Source of the DNA: Planctomycetota bacterium
Lineage (GTDB): Bacteria; Planctomycetota; UBA11346
DNA length: 64,000 nt
Assembly (NCBI GenBank): GCA_038231435.1
Contig: JBBRLJ010000010.1
Coordinates: 1-64,000 of the forward strand
Reading direction: 5' to 3'
In this document: in pieces, positions 24,001 to 30,000 of the stretch
Layout: the number at the start of each line of letters is the position of its first letter
How positions within the stretch are numbered: position 1 is the stretch's first letter
Made by a program: the position numbers

Positions 24001-27000
24001 TTCGCTGATCATCGTCCGCAGCTTCGTCCAGCCGGCGCTACTGCACACCAGGCGTTCCTGACCGACCTGGCGGATGACCACGCGATTCCCGGACGCATGC
24101 AGCATGTCCTCGGCCGGTCCAGGACCACCGGCCCATGCCGCCAGCGCGGACATGGTCATCGCCTGGGGATGGATGGAATCCAGGTGCGAGAGCAGGCGCT
24201 CGGCGCCACCCCCGAGACGCGAGGCGAAATGCGCCGTGGCTTCAGGTGAGAAACGGCGGTGGCGAGGCGGAGCGGCATCGACCACGCAGCCGCCGGCGAG
24301 GGTGGCGGCCGGGCTCGGACGGCGCAACACCACGAGGTCACCCGCAGAGAGGTGAAGTGGCGCCTCGAGCCGCAGCTGCGCGTCGTGCTCGCCCGCCTCC
24401 GCGTGGTCGACGTGCAAGAGATGCACGCGTGCCGGTACCGAGTCGGTGCCGTGATGCACCGTCACGCGCTCGCGGTGCGTGAGGCCGGTCGCCAGGGTGG
24501 TCAGGCGCACGTCCGCGACGAGCGTGGCCGCGAGTGCTCTGGGCGTCGCGAGCCAGGCGCCCCTGCGCACCTGGTCGTGATCGATGCCGGCGAGATTGAC
24601 GGCGGTACGTTGACCGGCCAAGGCGGTCGAGACGCCGCTCCCATCGACCTGCAGCGAACGCACGCGCACCACGCCGCCTGGATAGAGCTGCAGCTCGTCT
24701 CCAACCGCGATGGTGCCGCTGCGCAGCGTGCCGGTGACGACCGTGCCATGACCAGAAATCGTGAACACGCGGTCGATCGCGAGCCGCGCATGTTCGCCCG
24801 CTCCTGAGTGGCGCGCCGTGCGTGCGCGTTCGAGCAGCCAGGCGCGCAGGTCGTCGATGCCGGCCCCTGTCTTCGCGCTGACCGCGAGGGGGGGATGTTC
24901 TGCGAAGGGGGTGCCGGCGACGAGTGACGAGGCCAGATCGCGCGCGCGCGCGAGGCCCGCAGCGTCGACGGCGTCCGCCTTGCTCAGCACCACGCGGCCC
25001 CAACGCAGGCGCAGCAAGGTGAGGATGTCGAGATGCTCGCGGGTCTGCTGGCGCGGCCCTTCGTCAGCTGCGATGACCAGGACGCAGCCATCGACGGCGC
25101 CCACGCCCGAGACCAGGTGATGGACGAAGCGTTCATGCCCGGGGCAGTCGATGAAAGCGAGGTCGATTCCGGCGGCGCCCCCGTGCATGAACGCGAAGCC
25201 GAGCTCGATCGTCATGCCCCTGGCCTTCTCCTCCGGGAGACGGTCCGGGTCTGTTCCGGTGAGCGCTCGTACCAACGAGCTCTTGCCATGATCGACGTGT
25301 CCGGCGGTGGCGATGGTCACCTGCGGTGGGGCCGTGCGTCGCGTTCCTGCCGTTGCCGCCGACGCTCCGTGCGCTCCCTTTGCAGGAGACACCTCAGGCT
25401 CCTCGGTCGGTAGCCGCGTCGCGCGCGCTCGCCACGATCGCGGCCGCGAGCGCGCTGATTTCGCTTTCAGCAACGGTCCGCAAGTCGATCTGCACGACGT
25501 CCTTGGCGATGCGGGCCACCACATGCCGCCTACGCAGCGCCCGTGACAACCGGGTCGCTGACACCTGGCGCAGTACGATCAGCCAGGTCAGCGGGCCCTG
25601 GGTCGGAGCCGCGCCAGATCCGACGGCGCCTCGGCCTTCTGCGAGCTCGGCCTCCAACGAGGTCTGTGAGCCCTCGGCCCGTATGGAGGAAAGCCCAAGG
25701 GATCCCATGGCCGCGAGCAGGCGTTCAGCGCGCGCGCGCACGGAAGCGAGCGGCTCGGTGAGCATCGCGATCGTGGGAATGGCAGTGAAGGCGTCGCCGA
25801 GCAGGTAGTCCTGGAGTGTGCCCGCCAAGGCCGCGAGCGTGAGCTTGTCCGCGCGCAGAGCGCGCGCGAGCGGATGGCGCTTGCAGCGCGCGATCAGGTC
25901 GCGTTTGCCGATGAGGATGCCGGCCTGGGGTCCGCCGAGCAGCTTGTCACCGGAGAACGAGACGAGATCCGCGCCTGCGGCGAGTTCATCGCCCACGCGT
26001 GGCGCGACGATGCCCGTGGGCCCGAGATCGACGATGCAGCCGGATCCTTGGTCGACCACCACCGGCAGCTTGTGACGTGAGCCGAGGGCGGCGAGCTCCG
26101 CGGTGGAGACTTCGGCGACGAAGCCCTCTTGGACGAAGTTCGATTTGTGAACCTTCATCAGCAGCGCGGTCTGGGGCGTGATTGCGCGCTCGTAATCCTC
26201 GATGCGCGTCTTGTTGGTGGATCCGACCTCGATCAGCCGGCAGCCCGCGGCCGCCATGATCTCGGGCACGCGGAACGAACCGCCTATCTCGACCAGTTCG
26301 CCGCGGCTGACGATGACCTCACGGCCCTGGGCCAGGGCCTGCAATGCCAGCACCACCGCGCCGGCGCAGTTGTTCACCGCCAATGCCACTTCGGCGCCGG
26401 TGAGCCGGCGCAACAGGGGTTCGACATGCATCTGCCGATCGCCTCGCTCGCCGCTGTCGAGATCGTGCTCGAGCTGGCAATACCCATGAGCGATGCGCTC
26501 GACCGCGGCTTGCGCGCGAGCGCTGAGCGCGGCGCGGCCGAGACCCGTATGGAGCACCGTGCCGGTGGCGTTGATCAGCCGAGGTAGCGGTGGAGCAGCG
26601 AGCGCTCGCGCCGCGGCGCGAGCTCGATCGAGCACCATGGCGCGCAGGGCATCCTTGTCCGACGTGTCCGGGCCCGTCCCAGCCGCGGTCGCATGCTTCG
26701 CTTGGACGGACAGCGTGGCTCGCATGGCGTCGATGGCTTCGCGAGCCAACGCCGCTGCGGTCGTCGCGGGCAGGCCATCGTGGCGGAGGTCGCCGGCGAT
26801 GGCCTCGACCGCCGGCAGCAGGCGAAGCGCGTCGATCGTCATGCCGGACGATGCGCTGCGGCTGACGCGGTGCAACCCTGCCAGCAGCCGATCAGGCGGG
26901 GGTCACTTGATCGAGGCAGCCTTCTGGCCGTAGACCGTGGAGGGGAACTTCTTGGCCAACGTCGCCATGTTCTCCTTGCCAGATTTGATGCTGTCGGGCT

Positions 27001-30000
27001 TGGGCGAGGCGAGCAGCTGCTGGCACTGCTGATAGATGTCGCGCGCCTTGAGTTCGTCCTTGAGCTCCTTCGCAGCCTTGAGCTCCTTCAGTCGCGCCAA
27101 GGCCTTCTTGGTGTCGAGTCCCTCGGACGCGGTCAGGAAGGCCTCGATCGCCTCGTAGGTCTCCATGGTTGCCGGAGCGCCGACCAGGTCATCTTGGCGC
27201 TTGCTCGTGGCGGCTTTCACCGCGTCGAGGATGCGCACCGCATCGGCCTGCGCCGGCGACTTCTTGCCAGCGACCGACTGCAGATTCTTGATCGCCCCGG
27301 GATACCCGCGCTCGACGCTCCACCACAGCTCCTTGATCTTCGGTTCGGTGAGACCTTCGATGGGATAATGGAAGCTGCCAGCCGCGGTGCCTTTGAGTGA
27401 CTTCAGCGTCTGGAGACCTTCGAAGTAGCCCACGCTCCCATCCGGATGCAGCATGTCGGTCTGGAGGATGTTGTTGAGGCTGATGTTCTTGCGATTGCGC
27501 GGGTCGTTGGCCCAGAGCGCATGCTCCAAACCGTAATTGTTGTCCTTATCGAAGGTCTTGAGTTCTTCCGCCGAGAGCTCGGGCGTGATCAGCACGAGCG
27601 TGACGGGGACCTTCTCGGTCTCGATGTAATCATGGATCGCCTTGGCTTCCTTCCCGAGGAAAGCTCTAGCGGATGGTCAATGCGCGCAGAAATCGACGAG
27701 CACCACGTTCTGGCCGTGGAATTGCTCGGCGCTGCGGCTCTTGCCGTCGGCGAACTGCAGGCCCTCGAGAGGATCCTGGGCGGCGAGCGCGGCTACGAAG
27801 ACCAGCGCGGCGGCGATGCGCAAGTGGGAATGCATGGGGAACTCCGATCGGTGGCTGGATGCGATCCAGCGGGCAGGACAGGAGCATCATGTCCATGGTG
27901 AATGGCGGTCAATGACCCTTAGTTAGAACCCGTTTCGGGAGCCGCTGCCTCGAATTCCTCACCCACCCGTCATAAGGCCACGCAATCACATGAAGTTGGC
28001 GGTGTGCAGGTCCGAGATTTCCGCTGCCTCTTCGGTTCCAAAACCGAGTTGCCCCAGCCGGGTGCGGCGGTTTGCGTCCATCTCGGCGCGCAGCGCCTGC
28101 ACGCTATCGAACCCATTGCCGATCGCCTGCGGCGTCAGGTCGGTGGCGGCGAGGACGACCAGGGCGTCGAGCACCAGCGCATTCAGGTCGGCGGAGTTGC
28201 GCAGCGCGTCGGCACGGCGTCTGACCACCATCGCCAGCCGCGATCGTTGGCTCGGATCCAGATCGAGGTGGCGCCGCAGATGAGCGATCCCGAACGCGAC
28301 ATGTCGGCTCTCGTCCTGCACCACCAAGCGCATGATCGACCTGGTCAGCGGATCGGGTGCGTGCCGTTCGATGAAGGCCAGCAGGGTCAGGAAGGTGCCT
28401 TCGCCCATCACCGCGAGCATGAAGGATGCGAGCGTGAAATCCGGCTCGTCGAGCAGGGACTTCAGCGAACGTTGTCCGAGGACGGTTGAACGACCCACGC
28501 CGGCCGCGGTCAGCGCGAGCCTGCGGGTGAAGACCTCGCAGTGGCGCGCTTCGTCAGCGGCTTGGATCGCCAACACCTGCATGATCTCGCGGAAATGGGG
28601 ATGGACCTGTGCGAGGAAGCGCGCGGTCACCAGCAGCGCCGCGTTTTCGTTCTCGATCAGGAACGTCAGGATCTGCGCGATCGCGGCGTCCAATGCCGGG
28701 GCGACGCACGGCGGCGTCCAATCGATCGCGCGTTCGGGATCCCACTGGGCGGCGGCGGCCTGCGCGTACAGGCGGGGAGCCTCGTCGCACCATACCGTGT
28801 CGCGCTCCGAGAGCGTGAATTGGAAATCCGGTCCACCACGTTCAACCATGGCGCCGCGTGCGGCGAGGCCCCAGTGACCCGATGCATGACCCGCCATGGA
28901 AAGCGGTTTCGTGCTGTCGCCGGCGCGCGCGGTATCCGACCAGCGCTCATCTGCCAAGCCGCGCACGATGCGCCCGGTTGCCAGGGAGCCCGCCTCGGCA
29001 GGGAGGAAGCCATGGCCCATCTGGCGGCACCACGTCGCCAGATGCAGGCCGAGGTCGGAGGCCGAGCCTCGCACCGCGAGTGCGGCGCCCACCGGTACGG
29101 TGGCGAGGGCGCGATCGATCAGGAGATGAGCGCCACGATCGAGGCCGAGGCCCTCGAGATCGAGCGCCACCTCAGTACTGGTAGTCGCGGGCGATGATGC
29201 GTCCGGAGGCGTCGTAGAAGGCGAGGGCATCGACGGCCTCCTCCAGGGCTTGGTAGTGGGACGCGCGTCCGTCGCGCCAGGCTTTCAAGCCTTCGAGATC
29301 GAGCAGCGGTCTGACGTCGGCGTCCGCATAGGACATTCCCAGCAGCAGCGTGCGGAAATCGGCGAGAGGTCCGCGCGCGAGCGTCGCGCTGTCACCATTG
29401 GCCGTGAGCGCGGTGAAGTTGCAATGATCGTAGGGTTCCGTCCGCGCCAGGACGTGCACCGCTCCTGGTCCAATCAGCCTCTCGTGGGTGAACAGCAGGT
29501 GGTTCGCATCGATGATGCAGGCGGCATCGGCCTCGCCCCGCACCAAGGCTCGTACCGCCTCGCGCTCGCCGCCGATGTGATCGCCATGTTTGCCGACGTG
29601 CAGGTCGAAGCGCTTGACTGCCACATCGCTGCCAGGACGAAGGCCGGCGCGCAGGACCAGGCCGAGCGGGATCAAGGTCGACTGTGGCGAGTCGATGGCG
29701 CCGGTGGCGATGGTCCGACCGCGCAGATCCGCGATCGTCTTCGTGGGTGTGTCGGCGCGCACCAGGATGAGCGAGGTCAGATCCTGGTCGGTGTCACGCA
29801 TGGCGACCGCATGGGCGGTGAGTCCAGAGGCCACGGCCAGGCGACGAGTTCGCACCCACGCGAGCGGAGAATTCCAGGCGACGCCGATGTGGCCAGCCAT
29901 GAGCGCTTCGACCTGCCGCTCGTAGTTGCTGTACAGGACGACGTCGACATCGAGTCCCTTGCGCAGGAACCAGGCCTGGAAGCCCTCCCAGATCGTCACG

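Follow-up and report, generated by a model that had tools for sequence, protein, structure and literature searches.

The curated NCBIfam VPGUxxT selenoprotein family (NF041382/NF041383) comprises Planctomycetota proteins of ~350 aa in which an N-terminal, Sec-bearing thioredoxin-like domain is followed by a C-terminal helical domain; Table 1 of PMC13188914 carries it under the name 'hypothetical protein OS_HP5'. The same table catalogues predicted bacterial TlpA/redoxin-type selenoproteins, mostly of unknown function, and its entries include 'ResA-like WAxxUGC' (NF041054), 'UGC-containing TlpA' and 'thiol-disulfide isomerase-like' (cd02966), 'Redoxin family' (PF08534, UxxC), 'Trx7/PDZ' (NF041199, CxxU) and 'Prx-SUH' (NF045827, CxxU). 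Proteins of the ResA/TlpA/CcmG (DsbE)/DsbF type have an exported thioredoxin-fold domain whose reactive residue opens helix alpha-1. In glutathione peroxidases (UxxT) and peroxiredoxins (TxxC/TxxU), the first helix of the thioredoxin fold begins with a single Sec or Cys that is essential, and there is no Cys at +3.

The window, the 64,000-nucleotide stretch of a Planctomycetota genome analysed here, carries a gene whose product is, like the TlpA/redoxin-type entries of Table 1, a predicted thioredoxin-fold selenoprotein with Sec in or beside a CxxC-derived motif. Unlike the UGC or UxxC of those entries, the motif is C-x-x-U-P, and a search of the window protein with their NCBIfam and Pfam models (cd02966 aside) gave no match with a threshold as loose as E 10. 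As a preliminary description of the locus had stated, scans against Pfam and NCBIfam gave nothing over cut-off. Similarity to the VPGUxxT family was found in the C-terminal 100–120 residues, which matched NF041382 positions ~225–346 with E values of 0.02 (window protein), 4e-5 (homologue L011) and 1e-16 to 2e-23 (relatives of the family). In contrast, the N-terminal domains had no mutual match, the score of the window protein, 14 bits, fell short of the cut-off of 350, and the VPGUxxT motif is E-V-P-G-U-x-T-C, whereas that of the family is C-x-H-U-P. True VPGUxxT members, each with one TGA, occurred in 4 of 401 genomes of the phylum and in none of the 23 sampled genomes of the same family-level group. 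Sequence comparison places the small family as a diverged lineage within a selenoprotein-rich superfamily of Planctomycetota, whose members have a thioredoxin-like domain and a shared C-terminal helical domain; through the latter the superfamily is linked to VPGUxxT. The proposal of a new selenoprotein family stood insofar as Sec/Cys pairs occur across the order with no Pfam or NCBIfam model, but the family is part of this larger group.

An in-frame TGA at a conserved Cys column

Read-through translation of the reverse strand from 26903 to 27835, with TGA as U, gave MHSH...VDFCAHUPSA...AASIK, in agreement with the earlier claim of a 310-aa frame interrupted by one in-frame TGA in F-C-A-H-[TGA]-P. 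The coding sequence (26906..27835, reverse strand) has 310 codons, from the ATG at 27835..27833 to the last sense codon at 26908..26906. Its single internal stop (27677..27679) is codon 53, in C50-A-H-U53-P54; the closing stop (26903..26905), at which homologues also terminate, is TGA as well. By reading of the sequence, a Shine-Dalgarno-like GGAG lies 6 nt before the ATG (27842..27845, reverse strand). With table 11, ORF calling yielded two pieces instead, 27677..27835 (52 aa) and 26903..27595 (230 aa).

Matches were present in 28 of 48 genomes of the order; 38 were listed, 12 of them with exactly one TGA and no other stop, which reproduced the previous counts exactly. In an alignment that took in 11 of these 12 (G028:C266 was left out), the TGA fell on codon 53 in all 11 TGA-bearing homologues, down to ~25% identity, and the others had Cys. 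The preliminary description had placed the TGA on the second Cys of CxxC in 4 of 4 sequences; the alignment extends to 11 of 11, but the label of second Cys holds for the family's own motif only. C53 and P54 were invariant among 29 full-length sequences, and full-length homologues measured 303–340 aa. The motif was present in 35 of 44 representatives (P0025–P0068), all 35 with C-P. The TGA was unchanged in a contig assembled independently from another sample of the likely source study (X3) and was kept in a ~95% identical contig from a different study (X4), with 26 differences over the 487 bases covered. Among the 38 in-gene differences listed for X4, 31 were at third codon positions, including six of the seven upstream of the TGA, and third-position differences were found on both sides of it. 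A chance TGA is excluded by the Cys at the same column in homologues, the covarying hairpin downstream (see below) and the unchanged TGA in X3 and X4. Sequence evidence of this kind confirmed the gene as genuine, with a thioredoxin-like Sec protein as its predicted product.

The bSECIS hairpin and the Sec machinery

Folds and covariation located a candidate bSECIS hairpin at 27638..27671 on the reverse strand, with the core at 27664..27645 and a lower stem reaching 27671/27638. The core, GCU[U]UCCU-CGGGA-AGGAAGC, consists of 4 bp, a bulged U, 3–4 bp and a G-rich apical loop; the hairpin begins 12 nt downstream of the UGA and its apical loop lies 20–21 nt after it. Folding recovered the same shape at the same position in all seven main-clade Sec forms, whereas the 16 non-Sec forms (15 with Cys, one without the motif) all lacked it. 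In the alignment of Sec forms, 92.9% of cells were paired, against 83.6 ± 2.5% in shuffled alignments and at most 71.4% in slid controls. Two pairs covaried, 18–33 (UA 4, GC 2, CG 1) and 22–30 (CG 6, AU 1), a covariation that rests on three lineages because four of the seven hairpins are nearly identical. The core of the window copy alone is weak (−5.9 kcal/mol), and its 76-nt single-sequence fold was not better than shuffles (z +1.32). The bSECIS consensus calls for a loop of 3–9 nt, G in the first two loop positions and a spacing of 16–37 nt (PMC13188914, Fig. 2 legend), and the window hairpin conforms to it. With its recurrence in 7 of 7 Sec forms and two compensatory pairs, the hairpin is better than the "only modest" element described before.

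The selenoprotein gene was said to lie directly upstream of selA-selB-tRNA(Sec)-selD, with SelD in a Cys form, and searches with Pfam, ARAGORN and Rfam bore this out. All four genes are on the reverse strand. The longest ORF of selA, encoding L-seryl-tRNA(Sec) selenium transferase (25394..26875; Pfam SelA, E 1.3e-126), opens 27 nt past the selenoprotein stop. It is followed by selB (longest ORF 23416..25524; GTP_EFTU, Beta-barrel_SelB and SelB-wing_3), whose true start is probably near the end of selA, by tRNA-Sec with anticodon TCA (23278..23371; ARAGORN; RF01852, 72.3 bits, E 8e-14) and by selD, encoding a selenophosphate synthetase with ...SCAGCAAK... (22128..23177; AIRS and AIRS_C). The Sec gene and the downstream machinery are probably on one transcript. 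Across the order, selA was also present in 10 of 11 genomes having a TGA form. A member of the family or a paralogue directly adjoined selA in 9 of 16 selA-bearing genomes (co-directional in five, divergent in four) and lay within ~2 kb of it in one more, and selA adjoined none of 16 non-Sec-form loci examined. Linkage to selA recurs in two gene arrangements. Our searches are consistent with the earlier statement that this is the only selenoprotein of the genome, a point that an assembly 88% complete cannot demonstrate.

Predicted fold and register of the motif

Residues 1–20 (27776..27835, reverse strand), MHSHLR followed by IAAALVFVAALAA, were judged by eye to be a signal peptide with a cleavage site A-L-A-A/Q-D-P. 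The same type of N-terminus, then a conserved D-P, is found in all full-length homologues, and the model has a helix at 3–16 with low pLDDT (66–67). We infer that the protein is exported to the periplasm via a cleavable signal peptide, in support of the signal-peptide-bearing CxxU protein proposed earlier.

An AlphaFold model from 29 sequences (pLDDT 93.4) predicted a thioredoxin-fold domain of the TlpA/ResA/Sco/Bcp type at residues ~20–153 (27377..27778, reverse strand), with a strand at 43–49 and a helix from residue 54. Foldseek against pdb returned SCO1, ResA, 4nmu, DsbF and CcmG at E ~2e-4 to 2e-3, so that the ResA/TlpA/CcmG/DsbF-type fold read from a first model was found again. VIA-align gave Z 10–12 and rmsd 2.6–2.9 over 119–135 residues (model range 19–152), the ResA/TlpA/CcmG/DsbF sub-type scoring Z 10–11.6; intermediate relatives of the family match ResA, TlpA and DsbE models. 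In the model, helix alpha-1 is capped at its N-terminus by U53, the place where thioredoxin-fold enzymes canonically carry the attacking Cys. The rest of the protein, residues 160–310 (26906..27358, reverse strand), is modelled as an all-helical domain of eight helices (domain model pLDDT 96.1), with W171, W172, R265, T300, Y302 and G303 invariant among the 29 full-length sequences. Foldseek found no significant solved relative of this domain (best E 0.23, BamD and designed repeats).

Profile alignments place U53 where the thioredoxin motif has its first Cys, the nucleophile. Aligned by hhalign with 13 canonical CxxC/UxxC relatives (probability 99.9%, E 5.5e-33, 275 columns), the family has U53 opposite the first U/C of G-U-P-K-C and A56 opposite the second Cys. 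HMMER likewise put C53 on the first Cys of CPPC (4fyu), CPDIC (SCO2) and CPGC (2l5o), in weak matches to solved thioredoxin-fold sequences (E 0.013–0.5). Several features set the family apart from ResA, TlpA, CcmG and DsbF, whose models gave no match at cut-off: Sec is used, a helical domain of 150 residues is appended, the +3 position of the usual resolving Cys is Ala or Ser (Ala in the window protein), and Leu, Met or Tyr occupies the cis-Pro column in the profile alignment, the cis-Pro being apparently lost. The Cys at −3 would be a family-specific partner replacing the +3 Cys. Among 35 Cys-form representatives, the −3 residue was C in 24, S in nine, A in one and N in one; nine of the 11 without Cys there had no second motif Cys at all. 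Cys at +3 was found in two of the 35 only, both with Ser at −3, an arrangement also seen in Sec form L018 (S-G-H-U-P-H-C). His at −1 is common, most members having C-G/A-H-C/U.

Possible activities of the protein

The explanation we favour, with a probability of roughly 0.6, is a genuine periplasmic Sec enzyme in which U53 is the reactive residue and a protein disulfide or sulfenate the preferred substrate; its export, chemistry, substrate and reductant are those that we infer from the features above.

The same selenoprotein might, with lower probability, be a peroxidase, in which U53 would play the part of the glutathione peroxidase Sec or the peroxidatic Cys of a peroxiredoxin, peroxide would oxidise it to a selenenic acid and C50 would be an optional resolving or activating residue. 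Such a role would suit a family in which position 53 is the sole invariant residue and Cys at −3 is missing from 11 of 35 Cys forms. The +3 Cys, lost here, and the cis-Pro, apparently lost too in the profile alignment, are also absent from peroxidases of the thioredoxin fold (GPx, Prx); disulfide reductases seldom lack the cis-Pro, and its apparent loss would suit a peroxidase-like or another chemistry. C-x-x-U-P is spaced like the peroxiredoxin motif T-x-x-C-P, but the Pro at −7 and the Thr at −3 are missing, and neither the Gln/Trp/Asn nor the Pro/Thr/Arg signatures of glutathione peroxidases and peroxiredoxins were identified. Bcp, AhpE, 1-Cys Prx and GPx scored Z 9.8–11.3, tied with ResA; sequence profiles, however, favour thioredoxin, Sco and TlpA over Prx, and when solved structures were searched by profile to a limit of E 10, thioredoxin, Sco and TlpA-like chains were listed but no peroxiredoxin. 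The nearest atlas clusters, Planctomycetota proteins with AhpC-TSA and Redoxin domains, are a lead only, and no AhpC-TSA match was obtained for the window protein (best homologue E 0.099, below cut-off).

Improbable in our view is a protein for metal or metalloid binding or delivery, in which C50, H52 and U53 would form a Sco-like soft-ligand site for a metal such as Cu or Hg. Human SCO1 was the first Foldseek match (E 1.9e-4), SCO1/SenC the best weak thioredoxin-fold Pfam match (with E 0.19 in the window protein and 0.036 in L011), and the PDB profile search lists SCO2 and a SCO1/SenC lipoprotein; yet every Sco match is below cut-off and tied with ResA, and the Sco signature of CxxxC plus a distal His is absent. 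The frequent His at −1 and the apparently lost cis-Pro, a residue said to guard thioredoxins against metal binding, would agree with a metal site, but in many members H52 is swapped for D, E, N, Q, K, T, V or R and C50 for S, A or N. That the TGA is instead a real stop or a nonsense mutation (two genes or a pseudogene), or an assembly error, is very unlikely: gene callers split the frame, database entries are truncated and the 76-nt fold is unremarkable, but the codon recurs in 11 of 11 homologues with Cys in the rest, the hairpin is confined to Sec forms, the Sec machinery is adjacent, independent contigs keep the TGA with third-position substitutions on either side, and the N-terminal 52 aa would comprise a signal peptide with only one half of the thioredoxin fold, the whole frame being modelled as one domain (pLDDT 93).

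In the favoured Sec enzyme, SelB carrying Sec-tRNA(Sec) would bind the hairpin 12 nt downstream, and UGA 53 would be decoded as Sec, as the anatomy of the locus suggests. The U53 selenolate would then attack an oxidised periplasmic substrate, most plausibly a protein disulfide or sulfenate, with peroxide as the main alternative, to give an intermediate with an Se-S or Se-OH bond. C50, located three positions before U53, would resolve this to an intramolecular selenenylsulfide. A dithiol-type cycle cannot be general for the family, since about a third of the Cys forms have no second Cys. The genes around Cys forms differ from locus to locus and gave no functional lead; at one Sec-form locus, L018, a DsbD_TM gene adjoins. 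A CcdA/DsbD-like electron shuttle in the membrane may re-reduce the selenenylsulfide, and a role of the helical domain in holding the substrate or a partner is probable.

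Reading frame, gene neighbourhood and domain architecture

The frame under study comprises 310 codons on the reverse strand (27835..26906), with a single internal TGA at codon 53 (forward-strand positions 27677-27679) and a further TGA as terminator. Read-through translation with the internal TGA as selenocysteine (Sec, U) gives MHSHLRIAAALVFVAALAAQDP...VVLVDFCAHUPSARAFLGKEAK...YGQKAASIK, and ORF calling with table 11 breaks the frame into pieces of 52 and 230 aa. A GGAG motif is located 6 nt ahead of the ATG. SelA begins 27 nt past the stop (Pfam E 1.3e-126) and is followed by SelB, tRNA-Sec and SelD, a Cys form, all four sel genes (selA, selB, selC and selD) being present directly downstream. 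The tRNA-Sec, called by both ARAGORN and Rfam (72.3 bits), was the sole scoring element in the Rfam scan. A promoter scan detected no promoter-like site, and a terminator scan detected two terminator-like sites that were not above shuffles.

The stop of selD and the start of a 349-aa ORF (21082-22131, reverse strand) share 4 nt, which makes co-transcription of this ORF with the sel genes probable. The ORF product has a hydrophobic segment at the N-terminus and no Pfam match (best, GH127 catalytic domain, E 0.12), and its C-terminal ...AYLCTANACDAP... is reminiscent of the end of YyaL/DUF255-type thioredoxin-domain proteins. The upstream neighbour (27986-29230, reverse strand; 414 aa) carries an AurF-like di-iron domain (Pfam E 4.6e-9); in two further genomes of the order UBA11346 (G007 and G012) the Sec-form gene likewise has a homologue of this neighbour upstream (~67% identity), and the neighbour has no evident tie to the selenoprotein. 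Elsewhere in the window, a glutathione-peroxidase-family gene (54650-54958, forward strand; PF00255, E 2.2e-35) contains no in-frame stop and is thus not a Sec form. A 2006-aa ORF (13000-19020, reverse strand), mostly predicted coiled coil, is rich in Ala, Glu, Arg and Leu; its C-terminal end appears HlyD-like by eye, and it shows no relation to the selenoprotein.

The N-terminus of the read-through product consists of a basic start and 13 hydrophobic residues, then A-L-A-A followed by Q-D-P, and is of the same kind in all full-length homologues, suggesting that the protein is exported by means of a predicted signal peptide. Searches of Pfam and NCBIfam returned nothing over cut-off for the window protein, in agreement with a preliminary description of the locus as a family lacking a model in either database. 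An AlphaFold2 model based on a 29-sequence alignment (pLDDT 93.4, pTM 0.85) predicts a TlpA/ResA/Sco/Bcp-type thioredoxin fold in residues ~19-152. Foldseek matched this model to SCO1, ResA, 4nmu, DsbF and CcmG (E 2e-4 to 2e-3; TM (target) ~0.6), and VIA-align gave Z-scores of 10-12 and rmsd values of 2.6-2.9 Å over 119-135 residues, with ResA, Etrx2, Bcp1 and Sco tied. For TlpA/ResA/CcmG-type proteins, Z-scores of 10-11.6 over 119-125 aligned residues, together with a Foldseek E of ~2e-4, bear out the ResA/TlpA/CcmG-type fold that had been proposed. Residues 160-310 form eight helices (pLDDT 96.1 when the domain was modelled alone) and had no Foldseek match at E <= 0.001, the best being BamD and designed helical repeats (E 0.23). 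At three loci (L055, L058 and L067, in genomes G190, G060 and G152, respectively) the helical domain (...KKYPDTEYAKRAKE) is fused to another N-terminal domain, alpha/beta-hydrolase-like by eye (G-F-S-G-G motif); its occurrence on different N-terminal domains suggests that it is a movable periplasmic module.

Relationship to known families and register of the active site

The window protein had no match at E up to 10 to the Redoxin, AhpC-TSA, Thioredoxin_8, ResA, TlpA or DsbE models, and its best homologue reached Redoxin at E 0.024, which is below the cut-off. The closest curated family is VPGUxxT type 1 (NF041382), which the window protein matches with 14.2 bits in its C-terminal part only, against a cut-off of 350 bits. 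Only the C-terminal domain is shared, whereas the N-terminal domain and the motif differ (F-C-A-H-U-P in the window protein, E-V-P-G-U in true VPGUxxT members). True members were found in 4 of 401 phylum genomes, all with TGA, and a search of the window's own genome with NF041382 gave nothing over cut-off. SCO1/SenC proteins are characterized by C-x-x-x-C and a distal His, whereas the window protein lacks a Cys at +4 and scores 12.1 bits against PF02630 (E 0.19; cut-off, 22.8). Known and predicted prokaryotic selenoprotein families, many of them with a thioredoxin fold, are tabulated with model accessions in Table 1 of a 2026 review (PMC13188914); among the Pfam and NCBIfam models named in that table, none matches the window protein (cd02966 lay outside the comparison). 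We found no description of the family in the literature on Planctomycetota, thioredoxin-like or TlpA selenoproteins, as far as this lies outside subscription journals, for the most part, and catalogue supplements.

The family is rare, with 21 proteins in a database of 5.8 billion clusters and 57 of 1.84 billion cluster representatives at E <= 1e-30, and strong matches to its profile are confined to one family-level group among the 401 phylum genomes sampled. A contig search with a family alignment (A4) detected five Planctomycetota contigs and one metagenome contig, and none with the single window protein as query; a protein atlas queried with a natural Cys-form homologue yielded family-level leads only.

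Searching the phylum with the family profile identified distant relatives of the same architecture that carry canonical motifs, such as F-Y-E-E-G-U-P-K-C, W-A-T-W-U-G-P-C and L-W-G-V-K-U-G-P-C, many with Sec and with Cys forms alongside. These relatives match the ResA, TlpA and DsbE models, and their C-terminal domain matches NF041382 at E 1e-16 to 2e-23. When the family alignment (A5) was compared with 13 of the relatives (A7) using hhalign, the two aligned over 275 columns (probability 99.9%, E 5.5e-33) without a gap at the active site, V-V-L-V-D-F-C-A-H-U-P-S-A lying over V-V-L-Y-F-Y-E-E-G-U-P-K-C, thereby indicating that U53 corresponds to the first, attacking Cys/Sec, A56 to the resolving Cys and C50 to a non-Cys position. 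Similarly, HMMER aligned C53 of the family with the first Cys of CPPC (4fyu, E 0.013), CPDIC (SCO2, E 0.36) and CPGC (2l5o, E 0.43). The modelled strand runs to residue 49 and the helix starts at 54, which makes U53 the helix N-cap. The TGA had previously been assigned to the second Cys of CxxC; the hhalign and HMMER alignments instead give U53 the place of the first. The window protein shares the thioredoxin fold, including TlpA-type insertions, with the TlpA/ResA/CcmG oxidoreductases, and U53 corresponds to the attacking Cys of their C-x-x-C, but position +3 is Ala.

Seven further loci (L050, L054, L056, L061, L063, L066 and L068, in G330, G273, G280, G270, G417, G381 and G312, respectively) encode TGA-containing relatives with the same helical domain and canonical motifs (E-E-G-U-P-K-C, V-D-T-U-P-K-C, V-K-U-G-P-C and W-U-G-P-C). 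The N-terminal VPGU domain of NF041382 is widespread in the phylum, with a single TGA in 26 of the 40 matches listed. Planctomycetota look rich in exported thioredoxin-like selenoproteins.

Natural variation was assessed in the best 44 representatives (P0025-P0068) from the search of 1.84 billion cluster representatives, 35 of which contain the motif. C-P was invariant in all 35, and position -3 was Cys in 24, Ser in nine, Ala in one and Asn in one. Position +3 was non-Cys in 33 of the 35 and Cys in two, both with Ser at -3, a combination also present in the Sec form at locus L018 (S-G-H-U-P-H-C), the only such Sec form. Likewise, in the alignment of 29 full-length sequences, position 53 (Sec or Cys) and P54 were invariant and C50 was variable. 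This variation indicates that one residue is essential, and that its partner may be at -3, at +3 or missing. Where the relatives have the cis-Pro (I-P-x-A-Y), the family has Leu, Met or Tyr in that hhalign column, within its N-I-x-Q, as judged from the alignment only.

From these features we infer a mechanism in which UGA 53 would be decoded by SelB-dependent insertion and the product exported, after which the U53 selenolate would attack an oxidised periplasmic substrate, with a protein disulfide or sulfenate favoured. In most members C50 would resolve the intermediate, and the resulting selenenylsulfide would be reduced by a CcdA/DsbD-type shuttle. A gene for a DsbD_TM/CcdA-type membrane protein (L018 2-1252, forward strand, genome G041; Pfam E 4.6e-20) adjoins the family member at that locus in convergent orientation, with selA ~2 kb off on the opposite side. 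Among the neighbours of 20 homologue loci there was no conserved partner but selA, and those of the non-Sec forms were diverse, with no functional lead. The main rival is that the window protein is a peroxidase, which would account for the 1-Cys members of the family, the loss of the +3 Cys, the apparent loss of the cis-Pro, and structural matches in which Bcp, Prx and GPx are tied. Peroxiredoxins have the signature P-x-x-x-T/S-x-x-C, whereas the window protein has Leu at -7 and Cys at -3; it does not match PF00578, for which L011 reached E 0.099 and 13 bits (cut-off, 26), and we regard a peroxidase as rather unlikely. Binding of a metal by C50, H52 and U53, the first of which varies within the family, is a minor alternative and an improbable one. 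The attack of U53 on a disulfide or sulfenate is the reading favoured here.

Decoding of the TGA and the downstream hairpin

A six-frame search of 48 genomes of the order, repeated here, gave matches in 28 genomes; 38 matches were listed, and 12 of these contained exactly one TGA and no other stop, reproducing the counts of the preliminary description. The TGA was at codon 53 in 11 of the 11 TGA-bearing homologues examined (of the 12, G028:C266 was left out) and Cys occupied this position in the other full-length homologues, so that the proposed Sec/Cys pairs stand. The 11 TGA forms consist of seven copies of the main family and four of a paralogous subfamily (~25% identity, motif F-C-x-G/V-U). 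Among the 21 relatives in the protein database at E <= 1e-3, 13 were N-terminally truncated gene calls that start just past the motif, and these grouped in a tree with verified Sec forms. Sec and Cys forms were intermixed in the tree, and at least five changes of the Sec label were needed with a midpoint root placed for drawing only.

Independent assemblies contained the same TGA. Contigs from sequencing run X3, which covers a different sample from the study that includes the likely source run, matched 27627-27816 without any difference, and a contig from run X4, of a different study, had 26 differences across 27394-27880 and retained the TGA. Third codon positions of the selenoprotein frame accounted for 31 of the 38 X4 differences listed inside the gene, and for six of the seven listed upstream of the TGA. 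Such differences on both sides of a retained TGA are the pattern of one frame translated through it. selA was detected in 16 of the 48 order genomes and in 10 of the 11 with a TGA form, the exception being G028, which is 72% complete.

The legend to Fig. 2 of PMC13188914 describes a bSECIS element as a stem-loop 16-37 nt past the UGA, with an apical loop of 3-9 nt, a G in the first two loop positions and an MFE <= -7.5 kcal/mol, and the element of the main-family Sec forms has the features given in that legend. All seven of these forms share one hairpin fold in the 48 nt that start at the UGA (MFE of the 48-nt folds, -10.1 to -21.4 kcal/mol). The hairpin follows a 12-nt spacer and is built of 4 bp, a bulged U and a further 3-5 bp (7-9 bp overall), with an apical loop of CGGGA, GGC or GGU starting 20-21 nt past the UGA. 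In the hairpin alignment, 92.9% of cells were paired, as against 83.6 +/- 2.5% after shuffling (3 of 500 shuffles equalled the observed value) and 44.6-71.4% in slid controls. Double-sided changes were observed in pairs 18-33 (UA 4, GC 2, CG 1) and 22-30 (CG 6, AU 1), in a sample where four of the seven hairpins hardly differ from one another; because these changes alter the protein (AFLGKEA versus ASLGEGV), the RNA appears to constrain the coding sequence. This hairpin was absent from the corresponding place in 16 of 16 non-Sec copies (15 Cys forms and the motif-less L026), some of which form other hairpins. The four TGA paralogues have a different 6-bp hairpin, also covarying, at a similar offset. 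The bSECIS had been described as modest, which holds for the single copy, as the core hairpin of the window gene on its own reaches just -5.9 kcal/mol and the 76 nt that follow the TGA, folded as a single sequence, were not above shuffles (z +1.32), but not for the set of Sec forms, across which the hairpin is conserved and covarying and through whose comparison alone it is recognisable. The bSECIS codons (27640-27676, reverse strand) score poorly in the codon-usage model of the genome, so that the true Sec site is lost to a naive filter on coding potential.

As a whole, this information identifies the window gene as a genuine, predicted selenoprotein gene. The alternatives of a pseudogene, of split genes or of an assembly error are, taken together, highly improbable.

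The Sec machinery and its probable client

Whether the genome encodes other selenoproteins was examined by two routes. Among nine families searched in the 88% complete assembly, matches to FdhA (TIGR01553), Redoxin (PF08534), AhpC-TSA (PF00578), Thioredoxin (PF00085), Thioredoxin_8 (PF13905), CMD (PF02627) and GSHPx (PF00255) contained no in-frame stop, and Rdx (PF10262) and selenouridine synthase (TIGR03167) had no match. A scan of TGAs by codon log-odds was swamped by antisense frames (67% GC) and lost the true site because of the odd codon usage of the hairpin region, and was replaced by six-frame comparison. This second scan gave 110 in-frame TGA sites with coding support on both sides. 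Candidates with a paralogue spanning the TGA proved to be ordinary gene ends, namely those of a MacB-type permease, a response regulator, an SDR, an ABC ATPase, four-helix-bundle proteins and tandem pilin-like gene pairs. The earlier claim that this is the only selenoprotein of the genome is thus consistent with the nine families and 110 sites, although at 88% completeness this falls short of proof.

A main-family member lies directly upstream of selA, and co-directional with it, in five of the 16 genomes of the order that carry selA (G000, G007, G011, G012 and G013; the N-terminus is off the contig in G011, and in G012 two contigs each contain part of the gene). In four others (G029, G032, G036 and G037) a TGA-bearing paralogue is divergent from selA, and in G041 a Sec form is ~2 kb from it. 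The remaining six contain no linked family member, the Sec form of G043 being on a 2.6-kb contig only. selA was not found within the 1.5-kb flanks of any of 16 non-Sec-form loci. The two different arrangements with selA argue for selection for linkage and not for inherited synteny alone. Three genomes of one genus (G038, G039 and G040; loci L088, L081 and L079) have selA but no family member, indicating that other selenoproteins exist in the order. A rough scan for C/S/T-flanked in-frame TGAs at the selA loci of G041 and the six genomes without an adjacent member detected no obvious selenoprotein gene.

The family is a thioredoxin-fold Sec/Cys kind with an unusual position of the partner Cys and recurrent coupling to selA. 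A further reading, which we hold tentatively and put at roughly three in ten, is that the whole Sec trait is kept, and perhaps inherited or moved as a block, for one exported enzyme with an undescribed layout: Sec at the attacking position, the partner Cys shifted to -3 in place of +3 (C-x-x-U-P), and a helical domain dedicated to the enzyme.

Thioredoxin-fold proteins are the commonest kind of predicted bacterial selenoprotein, and one more such family is no surprise in itself. Gene callers split or shorten genes of this kind, and the coordinates and the hairpin permit correct annotation of the window and of related genomes; the poor codon score at the Sec site is worth heeding in automated selenoprotein scans of high-GC genomes. 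The presence of Sec or Cys at one position, with the partner at -3, at +3 or absent, bears on how a resolving residue can move. For a poorly known order of Planctomycetota, the window protein gives the Sec machinery a concrete client, probably its only one, which may explain why the pathway is retained, and the coupling of its gene to selA offers a simple system for asking why so costly a decoding pathway persists. If the single-client reading is true, the coupling to selA in two arrangements would represent selection for a cassette of client plus machinery.
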